Below are positions 7,737-64,000 of a DNA stretch of 64,000 nucleotides, piece after piece. Both the position numbers and the translations under genes were made by a program. Each line of letters begins with the position of its first letter. Within the stretch, counting starts at the first letter, position 1. The notes below the pieces were generated by a model. The model made no database searches. It saw nothing but the letters and a program-made list of their open reading frames with translations, and had not been told where the DNA came from. Source of the stretch: Bacteroidales bacterium M7 (GTDB taxonomy: Bacteria > Bacteroidota > Bacteroidia > Bacteroidales > Muribaculaceae); the NCBI GenBank assembly GCA_001689515.1, contig LUJR01000039.1, forward strand, positions 83,544 to 147,543, given 5' to 3'.

Positions 7737-10328
7737 ATGAATTTCAACAATTTTACCATTAAGTCTCAGGAGGCAATCCAGAAGGCTGTCGACATCGCCA
7801 AAGGCAACGGACAGCAGTCTATCGAACCCGTCCACCTGCTTAAGGGAGTAATGACCGAGGGAGACTCCCTGATAAAGTTCCTGTTTCAGAAAGTAGGAGC
7901 CAACCTGTCACTCTTATCTGACAGGGTTGACAATGCTATCGCATCTCTGCCAAAGGTCAGCGGAGGTGAGCCCTATCTGAGCCGCGAGTCTAACGATGTG
8001 CTCCAGAAAGCACTCGATGTATCCAAGAAACTTGGCGACCAGTATGTCACACTCGAAGCCCTGTTGACTGCCATCTATCAGGTCAGCAGTCCGGCATCGA
8101 CCATTCTCAAGGACATGGGTCTCAACGAAAAAGAGCTTGAGGCCGCCATCAATGAGCTCCGTAAGGGCAAAAAAGCCACCGACCAGAGCGCAGAGGACAC
8201 TTACAATGCACTCAGCAAGTACGCCATCAACCTCAACGAACGCGCCCGCTCGGGCAAACTCGATCCTGTCATCGGGCGTGACGAGGAGATACGTCGCGTG
8301 CTCCAGATTCTTAGCCGACGCACCAAAAACAACCCGATGCTCATAGGCGAACCCGGTACCGGTAAGACCGCCATCGCCGAGGGACTTGCTCAGCGAATAG
8401 TACGCGGTGACGTTCCCGAAAACCTCCGCACCAAGCAGATTTTCTCGCTTGACATGGGTGCCCTCGTGGCCGGTGCAAAATATAAAGGCGAATTTGAGGA
8501 ACGACTCAAAGCCATCGTCAACGAAGTAACACAGAGCGATGGCGAAATCATCCTCTTCATCGACGAAATACACACCCTCGTAGGTGCCGGAAAGGGCGAA
8601 GGCGCCATGGATGCCGCAAACATCCTCAAACCGGCCCTGGCACGTGGCGAGCTCCGCAGCATAGGTGCCACCACCCTTGACGAGTACCAGAAATATTTTG
8701 AAAAGGACAAGGCACTCGAACGCCGATTCCAGAAAGTTATGGTCAACGAGCCTGACGAAGCAAGCGCCATCGCCATACTCCGCGGCCTGAAAGAGCGTTA
8801 CGAGAACCACCACAAAGTCCGCATCCGTGACGAGGCGATTATCGCAGCCGTGACCCTCTCGGAGCGTTATATCACCGACCGTTTCCTCCCCGACAAGGCC
8901 ATCGACCTCATAGATGAGGCAGCGTCTAAGCTGCGTCTGGAAACCGACTCCGTGCCCCAGGCCATTGATGACATCACACGTCAGATAGCACAGAAGGAGA
9001 TAGAACGCGAGGCCATCAAGCGCGAGGGCGACGAGGCCAAGGTCAAGGAGATAGAAAAAGAACTTGCCGCTATGCGCGAGGAAGAATCGGAATACACTGC
9101 CAAGTGGAAAGCCGAAAAAGACCTCATCAACCGCATACAGCAGAACAAGATAGACATAGAGCAGCTCAACTTCGAGGCTGACAAGGCCGAACGTGACGGC
9201 GACTATGCACGAGTAGCCGAAATCCGTTACAGCCAGATTCAGCAGAAGGAGAAGGAAATCACCGAAATCCAGGAACAGCTGAAAATGATGCAGGGCGACA
9301 AAGCTCTCATCAAAGAGGAAGTGGATTCGGAAGATATTGCCGACGTGGTATCTCGCTGGACAGGAATCCCTGTCAACAAGATGGTACAGAGCGAGAAGGA
9401 AAAACTGCTCCATCTTGAGGCCGAACTCCACAACCGTGTAGTAGGCCAGGACGAAGCCATAGCAGCCATAGCTGATGCCGTTCGCCGCAGCCGCGCAGGC
9501 CTGAATGACCCACGCCGCCCTATCGGCTCGTTCATCTTCCTCGGCACTACAGGTGTCGGCAAGACTGAGCTTGCCAAGGCGTTGGCCGAGTACCTGTTTG
9601 ACGACGAGAACATGATGACCCGTATCGACATGAGCGAGTATCAGGAGAAACACGCTGTGAGCCGACTCGTCGGAGCGCCTCCCGGATACGTCGGTTATGA
9701 CGAGGGAGGCCAGCTGACCGAGGCCGTGCGTCGCAAACCATACTCCGTGGTGCTGTTTGATGAAATCGAGAAAGCACATCCCGATGTATTCAATATCCTC
9801 TTGCAGGTGCTTGACGATGGCCGTCTGACCGACAACAAGGGCCGTCTGGTCAACTTCAAGAACACCATCATAATCATGACCTCCAACATGGGGTCAAACG
9901 TAATCCGCGAGAATCTCGCCGGTCTTACACCCGAGAATCGTGAGGAGAAGATTGAAGGCACCAAAGAGCAGGTACTGGAGATGCTTAAACAGACCATCCG
10001 TCCCGAGTTCCTCAACCGTATCGACGAAATCATCATGTTCACTCCGCTTAACGAGGCTGAAATCGAAGAAATCGTCGGGCTACAGATTCAGAGCATCAAG
10101 AAGATGCTTGCCAACAACGGCGTGACACTCAAGGTCACCCCCGAGGCTGTCAAGCTCCTCGCACGCGAAGGCTATGATCCCGAGTTCGGTGCCCGTCCTG
10201 TCAAGCGAGTAATCCACCGTCAGGTCCTCAACCGCCTCTCCAAGGACATCCTCGCCCAGAAAGTCGACAAGGACAAACCCATAGTCATCGACGTAGACAC
10301 CGACGACAACCTCGTCTTCACCAACTGA
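7737..10328 (+). CDS. clpB: ATP-dependent chaperone ClpB
   Basis: 863 aa with two AAA+ modules (GEPGTGKT and GTTGVGKT), a middle coiled-coil region, and a Clp N-domain. Confidence 0.97.
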
Positions 10329-46763: not shown

Positions 46764-46851
<88 letters not shown>

Positions 46852-46993: not shown

Positions 46994-48184
46994 ATGTTGC
47001 CAGACAAGAACTCGCTCGCCCGCGTAATGGGCTACACGGTGCCGGTGCTCCACCGTGGCAAAACATGGTATGTGGATTTCTATGCCTTTGATCCTGCCAC
47101 AGGAGAGATGCGCCGCAAGAAGTACCACATAGACAGCATCAAGGGGATTACAGCCAAGAAACAGCGCGGTGCAGAGATATGCGCCGCGCTGATGCAGAAA
47201 CTCCGTGGCGGATGGAATCCGTGGGCACAGGAGGGTTGCAGCCGCAGCTATGCGCGGTTTGCCGATGTGGTAGACCGCTACCTCCAGTCTATTGAGAAGA
47301 CTTCACGCCGCAAAACCTACCTGTCATATTCATCACGCGCCAACATGCTCATCCGCTACATTGAGACGATGACCGTCCCGATCATGTATGCCTACCAGTT
47401 TGACTCGGCTCTGATTGTGGATTTCTTGGACTGGCTCTACCTTGACCGCGAGGTGACGGCACGGACACGCAACAACTATCGCGGATGGTGCTCGTCACTC
47501 GGAGCATGGATGGCGCAGCGCAAATACGTACAGTCCAATCCCGCCGAGGGGATCGCCAACATATCCGAGACAGCCAAGATACGCACAGACCTCACCGCCG
47601 GGCAGCTTCGACAGATGAAGGATGAGCTTGAGGCTGACGAGCCCCACTACCTGCTGGCGTGTATGATGGAATACTACACCTTCATCCGCCCCACCGAGCT
47701 TAGCCACCTCAGAATCCAGGACATAGATGTGAAAAACATGCGCATATTCGTCCCTGCTGCCGTCAGCAAAAACAAGCGTGACGGATATGTGGCGATGAAC
47801 CGCATACTGCTCGGCTTGATGCTGCGCCTCAAGATATTCAGCCATCCGTCACACTATTATCTGTTTTCCGAAAATTTCCACCCCGGGGAGGTGCGGAGGG
47901 GTCCGGACGTGTTTAACAAACGCTGGAAGAAACTGCGCAAGGCTCTCAAGTGGCCCGACTCGCTGCAATTCTACTCGCTCAAGGACTCGGGCATACGCGA
48001 CCTTGCCAACGCCGAGGGCATAGTGACCGCCCGTGACCAGGCGCGGCATACCGACGTAGCCACCACAAACAAGTATCTCACCCACGGAGGCATCCACGTG
48101 CATCAGGAGGTCAAGGCATTTGAGGGGGCGTTTGGAGCAGAAGAAAGCCGGGAATCCTCACGGACACCCGGCTCGCCAATGTAA
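46994..48184 (+). CDS. Tyrosine-type site-specific integrase
   Basis: 396 aa with a C-terminal catalytic region (RPTEL, ARHTDVATTNKYLTH with the catalytic Tyr) and an N-terminal arm/SAM-like domain typical of Bacteroidales phage integrases. Confidence 0.9.
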   Translation: MLPDKNSLARVMGYTVPVLHRGKTWYVDFYAFDPATGEMRRKKYHIDSIKGITAKKQRGAEICAALMQKLRGGWNPWAQEGCSRSYARFADVVDRYLQSIEKTSRRKTYLSYSSRANMLIRYIETMTVPIMYAYQFDSALIVDFLDWLYLDREVTARTRNNYRGWCSSLGAWMAQRKYVQSNPAEGIANISETAKIRTDLTAGQLRQMKDELEADEPHYLLACMMEYYTFIRPTELSHLRIQDIDVKNMRIFVPAAVSKNKRDGYVAMNRILLGLMLRLKIFSHPSHYYLFSENFHPGEVRRGPDVFNKRWKKLRKALKWPDSLQFYSLKDSGIRDLANAEGIVTARDQARHTDVATTNKYLTHGGIHVHQEVKAFEGAFGAEESRESSRTPGSPM

Positions 48185-48203: not shown

Positions 48204-48413
48204 TTAGCTCTGGGGAGTGTCATCTACCAGTCGCGGACTCATGGCGATAATGAGATTTCCGAGAGTTGCGAGAGAGTCTTTCAGAGTTTCAAACCCGATC
48301 TCGTCCAATTCTTCCATCAAGTTGCAGTATAGATAGACAAGTGCTTCACGCACCTGTGCCGGCTCCATTGCGTGCTTCTCGAGGTCAATGACATTGTCGT
48401 ATTCGGCTCTCAT
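48204..48413 (-). CDS. Acidic 69-aa protein, paralog of the 71-aa protein at 62602-62817
   Basis: The ATG at 48413 overlaps the upstream stop (ATGA). AAAGGAGG lies 6 nt upstream. 15 of 39 residues are identical to the 71-aa protein in an ungapped core, aligned by eye. Confidence 0.7.
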   Translation of the reverse strand: MRAEYDNVIDLEKHAMEPAQVREALVYLYCNLMEELDEIGFETLKDSLATLGNLIIAMSPRLVDDTPQS

Positions 48414-48631
48414 AGCTTGCCTCCTTTCGCGCTGTCGGCGGGTTCGGGGATGTGGATGGTGACCGTGCCGCCGTAGATGTTGAAGATGATGTGGCCGTCG
48501 GCGCGTACCGTCGTTGCCACCGTGTCCATTTCCTCGCGGATGGTCTCGCCCAGCTCTATCATCAGGGCTGCCACCTTCGCCGAGGAACAGGAGCGCGTAC
48601 GCTCCGCTGCGTTGTTGTTTGTGTCTTGCAT
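48410..48631 (-). CDS. Hypothetical 73-aa protein (first gene of cassette Y)
   Basis: The ATG lies 2 nt after the conserved leader hairpin. Translationally coupled to the 69-aa gene. No homology was recognised. Confidence 0.6.
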   Translation of the reverse strand: MQDTNNNAAERTRSCSSAKVAALMIELGETIREEMDTVATTVRADGHIIFNIYGGTVTIHIPEPADSAKGGKL

Positions 48632-48777
48632 ATCGCTTGAGTGTTTGGCTTATAGACAGAAAAACGGCTGTCATATCCCGTTCGCCAAAACACTCAAGCG
48701 TCGCTCCGTGGAGCAAGTATTGATTGGATATAACAGCCGTATTGGCTTGTATGTAATCAGGGCATAAAAATAGCCCG
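48632..48777 (-). promoter_or_regulatory. Structured leader element, copy Y
   Basis: Contains the 14-mer CGGGCTATTTTTAT and an ACGGCTGT segment. The stem pairs 48634-48649 with 48684-48700. The loop motif is conserved relative to copy X at 63847-63989. Confidence 0.6.
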
Positions 48778-48849
48778 AAACATTGGATGTCCGAGCAATT
48801 GACCGATGCCCGACGGAAGCGTTAGACGCTCAGAGTATTTTGGCAATGG

Positions 48850-48879
48850 CAAAAGTAATGGAAATATTTGAGAAGCAAA
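48850..48879 (-). promoter_or_regulatory. Candidate promoter for cassette Y (-7 TACTTTTG, -33 TTTG)
   Basis: The reverse complement of 48850-48857 is TACTTTTG. TTTG (reverse complement of 48876-48879) lies 18 nt upstream of it. Confidence 0.5.
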
Positions 48880-48918: not shown

Positions 48919-48949
48919 TTTGTGGATAATGATTTTATTCGTATCTTTG
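48919..48949 (+). promoter_or_regulatory. Candidate divergent promoter (-33 TTTG, -7 TATCTTTG)
   Basis: TTTG at 48919-48922 and TATCTTTG at 48942-48949, with 19-nt spacing, 46 nt upstream of the ATG at 48995. Confidence 0.5.
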
Positions 48950-48994: not shown

Positions 48995-49120
48995 ATGAGA
49001 GACAGAATTAGAACGGTGGTTGCACTGATAGGACGATACTTGGACATAATCGAGACCCAGCGCAACCACCGTGTAGTAGCCGAAATCAGAGGCTTGCTAA
49101 ATGAGTTGCTTAATCTTTAA
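48995..49120 (+). CDS. Possible 41-aa peptide (MRDRIRTVVALIGRYLDIIETQRNHRVVAEIRGLLNELLNL)
   Basis: Below the ORF-track length cutoff. Perfect AAAGGAGG 5 nt upstream of the ATG. Followed by an 8-bp GC hairpin (49126-49148). Confidence 0.45.
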   Translation: MRDRIRTVVALIGRYLDIIETQRNHRVVAEIRGLLNELLNL

Positions 49121-49170
49121 CAAAAGCCCCCGGGTGACAGCCGGGGGCAAATTTACCAAATATATCCGAT

Positions 49171-49503
49171 ATGTACTTAGGAACACGCGAAATTTACGAT
49201 GCAGAGGGCAGCGAAGCCCGCAGAAAAGAATTGATCGCCACAAAGTGGGGCGCAGTTTCAAATGCCTTCATTGAGCTTGAGGGTTTGATCAACAAGACAC
49301 AGCTCGCCGATCAGTATTTCAACAAAAGCCAGGCGTGGCTCTCTCAGAGACTAAATGCCTGCATCTCACATAACAAAAAGACGACATTCACCAAGGAGCA
49401 GTATCACCAGTTGGCGGAAGCTTTCCGCCACATAGCAAAGCGTCTTGAGGCACATGCCGACGAGATAGACGCGGCAGCCCCCGACGGCTCAACAGACGAC
49501 TGA
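49171..49503 (+). CDS. Small phage protein, possibly DNA-binding (DUF5053-like, tentative)
   Basis: 110-aa ORF. The segment TQLADQYFNKSQAWLSQRLN resembles an HTH. The family name is from memory only. Confidence 0.6.
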   Translation: MYLGTREIYDAEGSEARRKELIATKWGAVSNAFIELEGLINKTQLADQYFNKSQAWLSQRLNACISHNKKTTFTKEQYHQLAEAFRHIAKRLEAHADEIDAAAPDGSTDD

Positions 49504-61782: not shown

Positions 61783-61822
61783 AAAAAGGTAGATTTGCGT
61801 TTTGTGGCAAATCTACCTTTTC
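61783..61822 (-). terminator. Strong hairpin plus T5 ending 2 nt before the tape measure ATG
   Basis: Perfect 15-bp stem pairing 61784-61798 with 61807-61821, and an 8-nt loop. On the minus strand it is followed by TTTTT then CT then ATG. Confidence 0.6.
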
Positions 61823-62476: not shown

Positions 62477-62534
62477 AGCTGTTAACCGTTTTCTCAAATA
62501 TAGCGAAAATAATTGTCTTTTCCAAGCAAAAGCC

Positions 62535-62601
62535 GGGGAATCCTCACGGACTCCCCTCTTTGGCTCAAACGAAAATGTAAAAAAAATGTATGTTGTATGT
62601 C
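62535..62601 (-). terminator. Conserved 3' UTR plus terminator hairpin of cassette X
   Basis: Minus strand, after the stop at 62602: acatacaacatacattttttttacatt, then the hairpin GGGGA.TCC gtga GGA.TCCCC (62535-62556), then GGCTTTTGC. Homologous to 48148-48203. Confidence 0.55.
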
Positions 62602-62817
62602 TTATTGGATGTCTGGCTCTATGAAACCTTCGGGGTCAGCATCGCGTAGTGCCTTGATCAGCTCACCCGTAATGGCAAGCTCCATGCGGATACGTTCAAA
62701 TTCTTCGGGCTCCACGTTGTCGATACAGGAGCAATATACCGTCATCAACGCTTCGCGTGTCTGCATGCGTGTATATCCGCTGCGGACAGTAATGGAGTGG
62801 TCGGTGCTGTGGGTCAT
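62602..62817 (-). CDS. Acidic 71-aa protein, paralog of the 69-aa protein at 48204-48413
   Basis: The ATG overlaps the HNH stop (ATGA). AAAGGAGG lies 6 nt upstream. By my count it has 14 acidic and 7 basic residues. Confidence 0.7.
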   Translation of the reverse strand: MTHSTDHSITVRSGYTRMQTREALMTVYCSCIDNVEPEEFERIRMELAITGELIKALRDADPEGFIEPDIQ

Positions 62818-63122
62818 CTCTCACCTCCTTTCTCTATCATGGGGCGGTAGGCCCCCACGGTCTGTACATGGCGGTGGCACTCCTTGCAGATGACACGCAC
62901 ATTAGCCACAGAGTGACGGCGCGGATGCGCCGGAGGGAGCAGATGGTAGAGGGTGCAGCCCGAAGTTACGGGCAAGCCGCACAGCTCGCACCGTCCACCG
63001 GCATACGCCATCCGTGCGGCTCTGACATCCTTGTTGCTACGGTCGGGAGTATTGCGCCTGTTGCGCTTGGCCCGGCGTGATATATAGATATGCACCCCGA
63101 GCACCTTGATATGCAGATTCAT
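62814..63122 (-). CDS. Small HNH endonuclease
   Basis: CELCG ... YHLLPPAHPRRHSVANVRVICKECH fits a Cys4 zinc plus H-N-H layout. Very Arg-rich. The ATG at 63122 has AAAGGAGG 6 nt upstream. The track start at 63143 is the alternative. Confidence 0.8.
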   Translation of the reverse strand: MNLHIKVLGVHIYISRRAKRNRRNTPDRSNKDVRAARMAYAGGRCELCGLPVTSGCTLYHLLPPAHPRRHSVANVRVICKECHRHVQTVGAYRPMIEKGGER

Positions 63123-63139
63123 CACTTGCCTCCTTTCAT

Positions 63140-63514
63140 TCATTTCCAGTCGAGACGGGATACGGCGCGGTATTCTTTACAATTCAAAAACATCGCGTAC
63201 ACATTTGAGTTAAACAGTTCACCATTGATGTGGACATACGAGATGACAAACACATAGCTGCCGTTACAATTTGATTCAGGTTTCACGCATATGCACCCAG
63301 AATCTGGAGAAATTTCCAGTTTCAGTGGGTTCCTTTTAAAGACTCGGTTGGCAACATCAACAGCTCTCTCAAGTTCCGAATATAACATAGCCAAAGCTTT
63401 TTCGTTGGCGAGTATGCAGTGCTCGAACTGCTTTGCCACAGCCTGTAGCATGGCACCTCGTTTTGTCTTGCCGGCGGTGGCGTAGGTGGTCACATTTGAT
63501 ATGAAGTATCTCAT
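63140..63514 (-). CDS. Hypothetical 124-aa protein
   Basis: ATG with AAAGGAGG 6 nt upstream. Its stop overlaps the alternative HNH start. No homology was recognised. Confidence 0.6.
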   Translation of the reverse strand: MRYFISNVTTYATAGKTKRGAMLQAVAKQFEHCILANEKALAMLYSELERAVDVANRVFKRNPLKLEISPDSGCICVKPESNCNGSYVFVISYVHINGELFNSNVYAMFLNCKEYRAVSRLDWK

Positions 63515-63846
63515 GCCCGACCTCCTTTCTGTGCTGCGCGGTTGACGATAAGACGGAAGTAGAGGAGTGTGGCTGCGATGGAGGCGAGTGCGCCGTCAGC
63601 TGCCATCACTGCCGCGCCACGGCTGGGACTGTCGGCGAGAGCCATCACGCCGAGCATGGCGGTCATCATGCCGAGGGCTGCGACTGCCACGAGGGCGCGC
63701 TCAAGTGTCACGCCTCGGAGGGCGGCGCGGACAATGCGCCGGGCGGTCTGCGCCGCCGTAAGGGGTTGGGGAACTAAGGAGATGCCTGTCATCACTCTAA
63801 TAGGGCTCTCCGGGCGGCCTGTGGCCGGAAGTGTCAATGCTTTCAT
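63511..63846 (-). CDS. Small protein with two predicted TM helices (111 aa)
   Basis: The ATG at 63846 lies 2 nt after the conserved leader hairpin, the same architecture as at 48631. Hydrophobic segments LVAVAALGMMTAMLGVMAL and LASIAATLLYF, with a basic tail. The track start at 63969 would place the leader structure inside the CDS. Confidence 0.55.
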   Translation of the reverse strand: MKALTLPATGRPESPIRVMTGISLVPQPLTAAQTARRIVRAALRGVTLERALVAVAALGMMTAMLGVMALADSPSRGAAVMAADGALASIAATLLYFRLIVNRAAQKGGRA

Positions 63847-63989
63847 ATGCGTCAATTTGGTTAGCGAGGCAGACAAAGAAACGGCTGCCGTTCCGTTGCT
63901 AACCAAATTGACGCAGTCTCTCGCGAGCGCATAAATTTGCGGAAAGGCAGCCGTTATAGGCTGGAGCATGAGGCTATAAAAATAGCCCG
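63847..63989 (-). promoter_or_regulatory. Structured leader element, copy X
   Basis: Contains the 14-mer CGGGCTATTTTTAT (reverse complement of 63976-63989). AACGGCTGCC pairs with GGCAGCCGTT over 10 nt. A perfect 17-bp stem pairs 63849-63865 with 63898-63914. The loop is conserved relative to copy Y. Confidence 0.6.
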
Positions 63990-64000
63990 CATATGATACC

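Follow-up and report, generated by a model that had tools for sequence, protein, structure and literature searches.

The window analysed here is a 64,000-nucleotide (nt) stretch of Bacteroidales bacterium M7 (contig LUJR01000039.1), whose right end carries, on the minus strand, a structured element, here termed copy 2, located directly upstream of an operon of four small genes, one of them HNH-like. A complete sister element, copy Y, lies at 48631-48857 on the same strand and heads two small genes that converge on the end of an integrase gene. The most pronounced feature of copy 2 is a perfect 18-bp inverted repeat (TGCGTCAATTTGGTTAGC, 63915-63898, with GCTAACCAAATTGACGCA, 63865-63848) enclosing a 32-nt loop and ending 1 nt before the ATG at 63846; an initial annotation of this DNA had correctly described the stem as perfect and as sharing its architecture with 48632-48777, its length and distance to the ATG (17 bp and 2 nt) requiring adjustment. 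The 171-nt stretch of copy 2 folds at -66.8 kcal/mol, with z = -5.8 relative to dinucleotide shuffles, none of 200 being as good, and copy Y reached z = -4.3. Alignment of the two copies revealed 72% column identity and three common blocks (CGGGCTATTTTTAT, ACGGCTG and CAGCCGTTTYTYTGTCT), each of which occurs in the window at these two sites only, with a chance expectation of ~0.3-0.4 matches, while the stems differ in sequence and conserve their pairing in both copies. The feature is real, far beyond chance, being kept in more than 170 other loci, and what the window contains of copy 2 amounts to the 3' two-thirds of a structured 5' leader RNA of ~220 nt, whose promoter and first ~60 nt, including a 5' arm (R1), lie beyond base 64000. 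The missing 5' part was taken from contigs L001-L005, which are 100% identical over the region (window coordinate = 73515 minus L001 coordinate).

A scan of IMG/VR with the pattern ACGGCTG-N45-75-CAGCCGTTTNTNTGTCT located the leader in at least 116 viral contigs among the matches listed, comprising 52 distinct cores, and the pattern was also present at 59 loci in species-representative genomes, 54 of which were confirmed by an nhmmer profile of the leader alignment. The confirmed genome members are Bacteroidales (Muribaculaceae, Porphyromonadaceae, Bacteroides, Phocaeicola, Prevotellaceae, Barnesiella and Duncaniella), together with a few metagenome-assembled genomes bearing other labels; one member belongs to Barnesiella sp. 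WM24 (NZ_SPPC01000004.1, L187). None of the genome loci is identical to the window, and the leaders nearest to the window copies come from Barnesiella and Muribaculaceae. A profile of a 43-sequence MAFFT alignment (A2) recovered all members and found two copies only in the window. One protein of this phage is indexed in 541 assembly blocks. In Rfam 15, no family matched the leader, either in the window at gathering score, in copy Y and copy 2 with cmscan at E<=10, or in 10 further loci at E<=0.01; the matches returned were noise (rnk leader, RprA, microRNAs), far under the gathering scores. GenBank phage records yielded one partial match, to an unannotated metagenomic phage, and none to a 2.7-kb query of this phage. 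No description of the leader was found in full-text literature searches, nor in the first 200 of the 408 supplementary files of a human-microbiome structured-RNA survey, an absence that does not amount to proof. An IMG/VR search for related loci with the 124-aa (amino acid) protein of the copy 2 operon found no relatives, and the pattern GGGCTATTTTTAT..ACGGCTG was discarded, as its seven matches in viral contigs were all chance occurrences lacking the rest of the element. The leader family is widespread, and so far uncatalogued, in temperate Bacteroidales phages; to our knowledge, no cis-regulatory RNA class has been catalogued for the temperate phages of gut Bacteroidales, the regulation of which is almost unexplored.

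Every member exhibits the same layout, which runs from promoter and arm R1 through hairpin P2, the terminator-like hairpin T1 with its U-run, the 5' strand of helix HA, arm L, and the 3' strand of HA with a second U-run (together T2), to arm R2 and the start codon (Table 1). The leader measures 206-290 nt, typically ~220, and harbors at least six helices and two hairpin-plus-U-run elements. Its promoter corresponds to the Bacteroides consensus and is of the Bacteroidota sigma-A type, with a -7 box TAnnTTTG and a -33 TTTG about 19-21 nt upstream. At positions outside the selection made by the procedure, the -7 box has A at -6 in 50 of 50 leaders and T at -7 in 42 of 50; the -33 element conserves T in 108/111 and 111/111, TTG/TTTG occurs at a 19-20 nt spacer in ~90-109 of 111, and an A/T-rich stretch lies 5' of it. 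For copy 2 this promoter is found, as initially anticipated, beyond the window end. Arm R1, which has the sequence of R2, begins 3-6 nt after the -7 box, at or beside the transcription start, and is followed by a small local hairpin and a conserved segment X (CCGYAGRGC). P2 bears a conserved loop, CGGUYA; its G, T and A never vary in 43 leaders not selected for that block and rank with the best-conserved unpaired positions, and one subfamily has a different loop (ACGUCAGA). The 3' strand of P2 also serves as the 5' strand of T1 (GCUCR...YGGGC), a stem of 5-9 bp and -5 to -8 kcal/mol that ends 62-74 nt from the start and is followed in 43/43 leaders by 6-9 U in the next 9 nt, and GGGC-U-run-GCCC at this site can alternatively form hairpin P3. 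Beyond a variable insert comes the HA 5' strand (ACGGCUGYC...), and hairpin P5 (GCUCUNCGGAGC) separates it from arm L. HA comprises 13-16 bp and its 3' strand passes at once into the second U-run, with at least six U/T in 9 nt, a feature kept in diverged copies; R2 lies 0-5 nt from the ATG across the family. Predicted T1 and T2 both have the G+C-rich hairpin and immediate U-run of intrinsic terminators, the ~50-nt insert in HA being atypical. In one subfamily, the stretch from the second U-run to R2 additionally accommodates a compact H-type pseudoknot (CCGC-GCCAG-U-GCGG-UUCG-CUGGC), with covariation in both stems (CCGC/GCGG, CCUC/GGGG, CCCC/GGGG; L025, L026, L039, L041, L043, L089, L090, L107, L110 and similar leaders).

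Three further features were considered for this anatomy. Inspection by eye of the variable insert between T1 and HA in several leaders found no TAnnTTTG that could mark a second promoter. A leader-peptide attenuator was rejected because there is no conserved upstream open reading frame (ORF), the frames from the conserved AUG in UAUGCC running for 2-52 codons in all three frames with scattered stops. A possible tertiary contact of the P2 loop with the 3' strand of HA was set aside, since the ACGUCAGA subfamily does not preserve it. With regard to the first gene, the ATG follows R2 closely in every member and related leaders keep the N-terminus M(K/N)ALTL(P/S)AT exactly there, which bears out the initial view that the 152-aa ORF of copy 2 is over-extended; the 111-aa product indeed has two hydrophobic segments, previously read as two transmembrane helices. 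Gene callers had extended this ORF even to 198-207 aa.

Table 1. Positions of leader elements, downstream genes and related signals of copy 2 and copy Y (window coordinates; L001 coordinates where indicated)
Feature	Position	Strand	Remarks
Copy 2, -7 box TACTTTTG	L001 9453-9460 = window 64055-64062		beyond window end
Copy 2, T1 hairpin, 3' strand CGGGC	63985-63989	-	5' strand GCCCG, P2, R1 and promoter beyond base 64000
Copy 2, T1 U-run TATTTTTAT	63976-63984	-	alternatively loop of hairpin P3 (63972-63987)
Copy 2, HA 5' strand ACGGCTGCCTTTCCG	63940-63954	-	compensatory changes in diverged members
Copy 2, GCGCTCGCGAGAG	63918-63930	-	local hairpin P5, or X', partner of the 5'-proximal CCGYAGRGC in the long-range fold
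Copy 2, arm L	63898-63915	-	5' arm of the stem; complementary to R1 and to R2
Copy 2, HA 3' strand CGGAACGGCAGCCGT	63881-63895	-	within loop of L:R2 hairpin
Copy 2, second U-run TTCTTTGTCT	63871-63880	-	directly 3' of HA; with HA, terminator-like T2
Copy 2, arm R2	63848-63865	-	3' arm of the stem; sequence as R1; over ribosome-loading region, 1 nt 5' of ATG
Copy 2, first gene, 111 aa	63511-63846	-	two hydrophobic segments; C-terminus ..KGGRA; AAAGGAGG and ATGA overlap with next gene
Copy 2 operon, 124-aa protein	63140-63514	-	family recurs as gene 2 or 3 behind leaders
Copy 2 operon, HNH-like 109-aa protein	62814-63143	-	
Copy 2 operon, 71-aa protein	62602-62817	-	
Terminator-like hairpin	62535-62556	-	probable end of copy 2 operon
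-7 box TATATTTG	62495-62502	-	immediately 3' of terminator 62535-62556; ATG 62476 (217-aa gene) 18 nt further on
Copy Y, -7 box TACTTTTG	48850-48857	-	TTTG 18 nt upstream
Copy Y, arm R1 GCCAAAATACTCTGAGCG	48827-48844	-	transcript 5' end; 3' part also in small local hairpin 48817-48831
Copy Y, hairpin P2	48793-48811	-	loop CGGTCA; overlaps terminator-like hairpin T1 (48773-48796)
Copy Y, T1 U-run	48764-48772	-	
Copy Y, HA 5' strand	48726-48740	-	
Copy Y, P5	48703-48714	-	
Copy Y, arm L	48684-48700	-	
Copy Y, HA 3' strand	48664-48678	-	
Copy Y, second U-run	48654-48663	-	
Copy Y, arm R2	48634-48649	-	2 nt 5' of ATG 48631
Copy Y, gene 1, 73 aa	48410-48631	-	~62-aa family, the commonest small first gene behind leaders
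Copy Y, gene 2, 69 aa	48204-48413	-	coupled to 73-aa gene by GAAAGGAGG and ATGA overlap

The pairing of the arms was examined in a register-anchored comparison of 45 leaders, covering 39 distinct L arms and 14 positions. L:R2 was paired at 99.7% and R1:L at 94.6%, with three or four pair types at nearly every position, compared with 52-53% (maximum 60%) when the arms were shuffled among sequences. The departures of R1 from R2 are mostly C-to-U changes that retain a G-U pair with L, a signature meaningful only in RNA. Duplex energies calculated with RNAduplex were likewise specific to the cognate leader, both for L:R2 (self -27.5 vs non-self -13.9 kcal/mol) and for the first 34 nt with the P5 plus L region (-31.6 vs -15.5 kcal/mol), the latter indicating that the R1:L helix extends inward through pairing of X with GCUCUNCGG. 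Covariation of the remaining helices was tested on alignment A2, in which P2 is 94% paired and the T1 stem 93%, its fifth pair (68:84) being AU in 15 and GC in 14 sequences; the P5 pair 203:210 is UA in 20 and CG in 13, and the long-range pair 50:203 is AU in 21, GC in 14 and GU in 5. The covariation score was reached by 0/500 shuffles in both tests, and sliding the partners lowered the pairing to 30-52%. RNAalifold independently predicted P2, P3 and HA. In eight diverged copies recovered by nhmmer, HA is kept via compensatory changes (e.g., GCGGUUGCC/GGUAACCGC and AGUUCCG/CGGAACU) and the U-run after it is always kept, the CUGUCU motif not being universal. The UNCG/GNRA-type loops, the G-U pairs and the H-type pseudoknot of one subfamily also point to an element acting at the RNA rather than the DNA level.

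Several of these helices are mutually exclusive: P2 and T1 share a strand, X can pair with the 3' strand of P2 or with the 5' strand of P5, and L with R1 or R2. HA crosses both pairings of L, and since no more than 2-5 nt separate L from the 3' strand of HA, R1:L and HA would be sterically exclusive. Constrained folding of the 45 leaders gave means of -72.7 kcal/mol for R1:L, -75.9 for L:R2 and -68.4 for HA, mostly a few kcal/mol apart with totals near -75, and in minimum-free-energy folds of the nascent chain up to the second U-run the R1:L long-range helix was always formed. Exclusive helices, near-equal energies, U-runs and the positions of the arms together give the leader a bistable anatomy, in which a translational lock is combined with two terminator-like checkpoints. 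On this anatomy, we favor with moderate confidence the reading that the leader is a bistable cis-acting RNA switch gating both the termination and the translation of the first gene; translational control of that gene, put forward initially as an alternative, fits the same anatomy.

In the proposed scheme, transcription would begin at the Bacteroidota promoter, 4-5 nt 5' of R1, and ~65 nt from the start T1 and its U-run would compete with P2 for their common strand. In one state (A), L would pair with the 5'-terminal R1, extended by X:GCUCUNCGG into an interrupted long-range helix of ~35 bp, which would leave the A-rich R2 and the start codon free and prevent HA, and hence T2, from forming. In the other (B), HA would form and, with the U-run at once after it, constitute the terminator-like T2, and in transcripts that pass T2, L would pair with R2, so that the ribosome-loading site, 0-5 nt ahead of the ATG, becomes buried. 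The partner of L would thereby set the expression of the first gene, and likewise of gene 2 wherever AAGGAGG/ATGA couples the two. The scheme supposes that termination does occur at T1 and T2 and that the R1:L fold is the ON state; what flips the switch may be folding kinetics, a host or phage factor on the P2 loop CGGUYA, RNase processing or a trans-acting RNA.

Some points weigh against the bistable switch. No protein is universally linked to the leader. HA and the CAGCCGTTT..TGTCT block were demanded by the search pattern and for that reason do not vary in most of the set, so that true variation of HA is seen only in the ~8 diverged copies, and the covariation of P5, T and X:X' largely separates a few subfamilies, which reduces it to few independent events. 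The T1 stems are short, T2 would be an unusual terminator because its 'loop' spans ~50 nt, and nested-only energy models give no verdict on a pseudoknot in which HA and L:R2 would exist together.

The genes behind the leaders indicate what such a switch might control. Among 88 distinct first ORFs, the largest BLAST-linked cluster (54 members) consists of Rha/anti-repressor proteins of ~240-250 aa plus shorter ORFs of 74-89 aa, and a 249-aa representative matches PF09669 (1.8e-18) and phrog_63 'anti-repressor Ant' (7e-31). Counted over 129 leaders, the first genes comprise 26 of a ~62-aa family that includes the 73-aa product of copy Y, 21 Rha/Ant genes and several clusters of membrane proteins of 75-110 aa, and the family of the 124-aa window protein occurs as gene 2 or 3 in 12 cases. 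The first genes of both window copies encode proteins of unassigned family and have no Ant/Rha gene behind them. An AAGGAGG end combined with an ATGA-type start/stop overlap is present in 47 of 74 small first ORFs, and their C-termini have the form ..KGGxx. The same junction at both window copies (63511-63528 and 48410-48428) suggests that gene 2 is probably translationally coupled to gene 1. The Shine-Dalgarno-like sites at these junctions are strong (AAAGGAGG), and other genes of this phage have such sites as well, which is notable in that Bacteroidota are not known to make much use of Shine-Dalgarno pairing.

Several contigs harbor two or three leaders, often as tandem cassettes 0.6-1.5 kb apart before paralogous genes, and in every case the arms of the copies within one contig differ. 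The tandem copies of L167 are near-identical over the promoter and the first ~65 coding nt, and R1, L and R2 have all changed together. The arm columns have an entropy of 1.21 bits compared with 0.83 for the scaffold, while close relatives (scaffold identity >=0.9) carry identical arms; overall, the pattern of the arms points to selection for orthogonality, short of proof. Tandem Rha-type genes, each with its own leader, were observed at L046 1986-2991 (also in L048 and L083), the second leader being diverged; this second leader lies within the stretch that ORF callers take for the 3' end of the first gene (a 260-aa fusion ORF), a further annotation artefact caused by the leader.

Upstream of the leaders, the common neighbors are DUF2442/HicA-type modules, DUF5053 and ribbon-helix-helix (RHH)-like genes, none of which is universal. 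Toxin-antitoxin-like pairs (DUF4160/DUF2442 with a C-terminal helix-turn-helix; HicA/HicB-like) lie just upstream on the same strand in L001 (7629-8286), L136, L091, L175, L178 and L119, and the 129 leaders include 22 with DUF2442-type and ~14 with HicA-type upstream neighbors. DUF5053 was dismissed as an obligatory partner: it flanks both window copies but is found within 1.5 kb upstream in only 19/99 leaders. Upstream of copy 2, two strong, near-identical terminators (L001 8354-8384 and 9098-9130; GGCGCGGATGGCCA..GGCTGTCCGCGCT plus T-run) stand 3' of DUF2442 and DUF5053 genes; they represent a repeated terminator cassette, one copy of which has ACGGCTG by coincidence. The terminator at 9098-9130 closes the upstream DUF5053 operon, so that the copy 2 leader heads its own transcription unit, and the description of two related RNA leaders, each heading its own operon, holds.

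The arms may serve a further function. It is possible, although we hold it only tentatively, that the leaders form an antisense immunity module acting in trans in the manner of c4/immI, which would extend the cis-acting switch rather than exclude it. Transcripts ending at T2 would build up in lysogens, L being exposed in the large loop that HA closes; there L would pair in trans with R1/R2 of cognate transcripts from the same or a superinfecting phage, leading to termination and to a translation block of the anti-repressor/small-ORF operon, and the hypervariable arms would set immunity specificity as c4 a'/b' do for P1 versus P7. The P1 immI region has the order a1b1 - c4 - a2b2 at the icd start - icd - ant, and all 45 leaders, which have the order R1-L-R2 with R2 adjoining the start codon, reproduce this layout by analogy, not homology. 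The proposal also accords with Rha/anti-repressor Ant as the commonest gene behind the leader (the largest first-ORF cluster), with the coupling of small first ORFs to gene 2, with divergent RHH-like genes upstream in six cases, and with the arms of paralogous cassettes, which always differ within a contig, change jointly in L167 and exceed the scaffold in entropy. In P1 and P7, c4 RNA and Icd control ant, and small sequence differences produce heteroimmunity (PMC8201110, PMC6906374); the c4 and c4-a1b1 motifs have been listed (PMC2864571). However, the Rfam c4 model RF01695 matched neither the window with copy Y and copy 2 nor 10 further loci, each transcript bearing L also has R1 in cis, which should mask L unless removed, the window copies lack an Ant/Rha gene behind them, and the divergence of the arms could reflect neutral drift with compensation or recombination, the arms of close relatives being identical.

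A more speculative and rather doubtful generalization is that the leaders constitute a programmable RNA-RNA recognition system, in which the T2-ended transcripts would be c4-like trans repressors and the variable arm cores of ~10 nt orthogonal immunity specificities. If so, the tandem cassettes, up to three per contig, would be arrays independently controlling anti-repressors and small effectors, which may silence the cognate operons of competing phages, and the family would represent an independently evolved counterpart of P1/P7 immI, widespread in human and animal gut, and a set of natural orthogonal RNA regulators.

Rather than the arms, the P2/T1 pair could be the site of control. In an attenuator of the ribonucleic antiterminator (RAT) type, an RNA-binding protein of phage or host, or a ligand, would bind the P2 loop (CGGUYA) and stabilize P2 against T1, licensing read-through, with the arms secondary. 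We regard this as rather unlikely: the strand GCUC shared by P2 and T1, their similar stabilities of ~-5 to -9 kcal/mol, the invariant G, T and A of the loop in 43 leaders and a promoter-proximal terminator layout like that of lambda PR'-tR' are all in its favor, but no candidate protein is consistently encoded nearby, one subfamily has ACGUCAGA as its loop, and the identity of R1 with R2 and the R1:L covariation are left unexplained.

The initial annotation had proposed that the two leaders recall HK022 putL/putR, RNAs that modify the polymerase in cis, and would promote read-through of the terminator-like hairpins at 62535-62556 and 61784-61821 into the tape-measure and tail genes. Two related structured RNAs do stand just 3' of promoters and head two operons of one phage, and the terminator-like hairpins downstream of the copy 2 operon are present. 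Nevertheless, processive antitermination of this kind now appears very improbable. The put RNAs are generally known as compact, ~70-nt, two-stem-loop RNAs without internal terminators, whereas the leader spans ~220 nt with exclusive folds, has its own conserved hairpin-plus-U-run elements and ends at a start codon. Most members of the family stand before short operons of regulatory or accessory genes (Rha/Ant, small ORFs), in many cases as tandem cassettes spaced ~0.6-1.5 kb, and copy Y heads just two small genes running into the end of the integrase gene. The supposed lack of a TAnnTTTG box between the terminators and the tail genes did not hold, either. A TATATTTG box after the first downstream terminator could provide the 217-aa gene, the tape measure and the tail genes with a promoter of their own, and TAGATTTG at 61808-61815 lies before ATG 61780, the probable start of the tape measure (MARKISEDH); the TTG listed as its start, at 61810, looks over-extended. 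The second hairpin is a perfect 14-bp palindrome at 61785-61820 on the minus strand (AAAGGTAGATTTGC / GCAAATCTACCTTT), which ends 4 nt before ATG 61780 and carries TAGATTTG on either strand; its sequence bears no relation to the leader family, and it could be a terminator, a start-site-occluding hairpin or an operator.

A DNA-level element, with the arms as protein operators or as inverton repeats flipping the R1-L interval, is hardly credible: R1 and L are inverted repeats ~150 bp apart beside a promoter, in a phylum, Bacteroidota, that is rich in invertons, but the arms are distinct in 39/45 leaders where recombinase or repressor sites should be conserved, R1 departs from R2 in ways that keep G-U pairing with L and are meaningful only in RNA, covariation and UNCG-type loops also occur in several further local helices, the R1-L interval does not include the promoter, and all 170+ loci have one orientation only.

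The surroundings of copy Y present further features. A tRNA gene at 46764-46848 (Rfam, 57.9 bits) stands directly before a tyrosine integrase gene at 46994-48184 on the plus strand (PF00589, 2.8e-12), and together they mark the left prophage end; the copy Y operon (48204-48631) converges on this integrase gene. The -7 box of leader Y stands back to back with a plus-strand box (TATCTTTG, 48942-48949) ~85 bp away, which is predicted to drive a 41-aa ORF at 48995-49120 with a Shine-Dalgarno-like site (GAAAGGAGGT) and a DUF5053 gene at 49171-49503. These divergent -7 boxes near the integrase gene make the region look like a genetic switch. A strong terminator hairpin at 49126-49148 on the minus strand, with 8 bp of all-GC pairs (GCCCCCGG..CCGGGGGC) followed by TTTTGTT, separates the copy Y promoter from the end of the tail-side genes and insulates leader Y from upstream transcription. 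Across the window, TAnnTTTG was found 47 times against 25 expected, an enrichment consistent with a Bacteroidota host.

The position of the leader before anti-repressor genes and small coupled ORFs is the usual place of lysis-lysogeny and superinfection decisions, and its three arms, two terminator-like elements and one conserved loop offer a mutable handle on prophage induction, whether for study or for engineering, in Bacteroides, Phocaeicola, Prevotella, Muribaculaceae and Barnesiella. It also bears on annotation, as gene callers routinely run the first ORF through the leader (152, 198 or 207 aa instead of 111 aa).

Among known systems, P1/P7 immI (RF01695 c4; c4-a1b1) likewise places an antisense element in the leader of the operon it controls, with target copies up- and downstream of it, the downstream target overlapping the start of a small first ORF whose translation is (in the new family, probably) coupled to that of the gene behind it; the gene that would be controlled is often an anti-repressor, and the recognition sequences vary among related phages on a conserved scaffold. 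The likeness is one of layout alone, as the new leader shares no sequence or structure similarity with c4, occurs in Bacteroidales and not Proteobacteria, has ~220 nt with two hairpin-plus-U-run elements and a long-range 5' helix, and in the window precedes no ant gene. HK022 putL/putR are also structured RNAs, presumed to act in cis, just 3' of two promoters of one temperate phage; unlike the new leader, they act on distant terminators, have two stem-loops in ~70 nt and involve neither internal terminators nor occlusion of a start codon, while the new leader has terminator-like elements of its own, ends at the start codon and is followed by a candidate independent promoter before the tail genes. 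Attenuators of the trp type and the RAT of BglG/SacY systems resemble it in having overlapping, exclusive helices in a 5' leader, one of them a hairpin with a U-run, and P2 similarly shares a strand with a terminator; the new leader differs in lacking a conserved leader peptide, in combining two terminator-like elements with a translational lock, and in a 5' arm that duplicates the start-site arm. In hok/sok (tac/ucb/dcb/fbi), long-range pairing of the 5' end of the mRNA likewise competes with local pairing over access to the start of a small, often membrane, protein, and paralogous copies have orthogonal sequences. For the new leader, in contrast, no antisense gene was seen on the opposite strand, the long-range partner lies in the 5' leader and not at the 3' end, and many of the genes behind it are Rha/Ant, not toxins. 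P22 immI (Pant, arc, ant, mnt, sar RNA) and lambda PR'-6S RNA-tR' offer parallels in multilayer anti-repressor control and in a promoter-proximal terminator that yields a short RNA unless overridden; these rely on proteins (Arc, Mnt, Q) and opposite-strand antisense RNA, whereas the conserved signals of the new leader all reside in the sense RNA.

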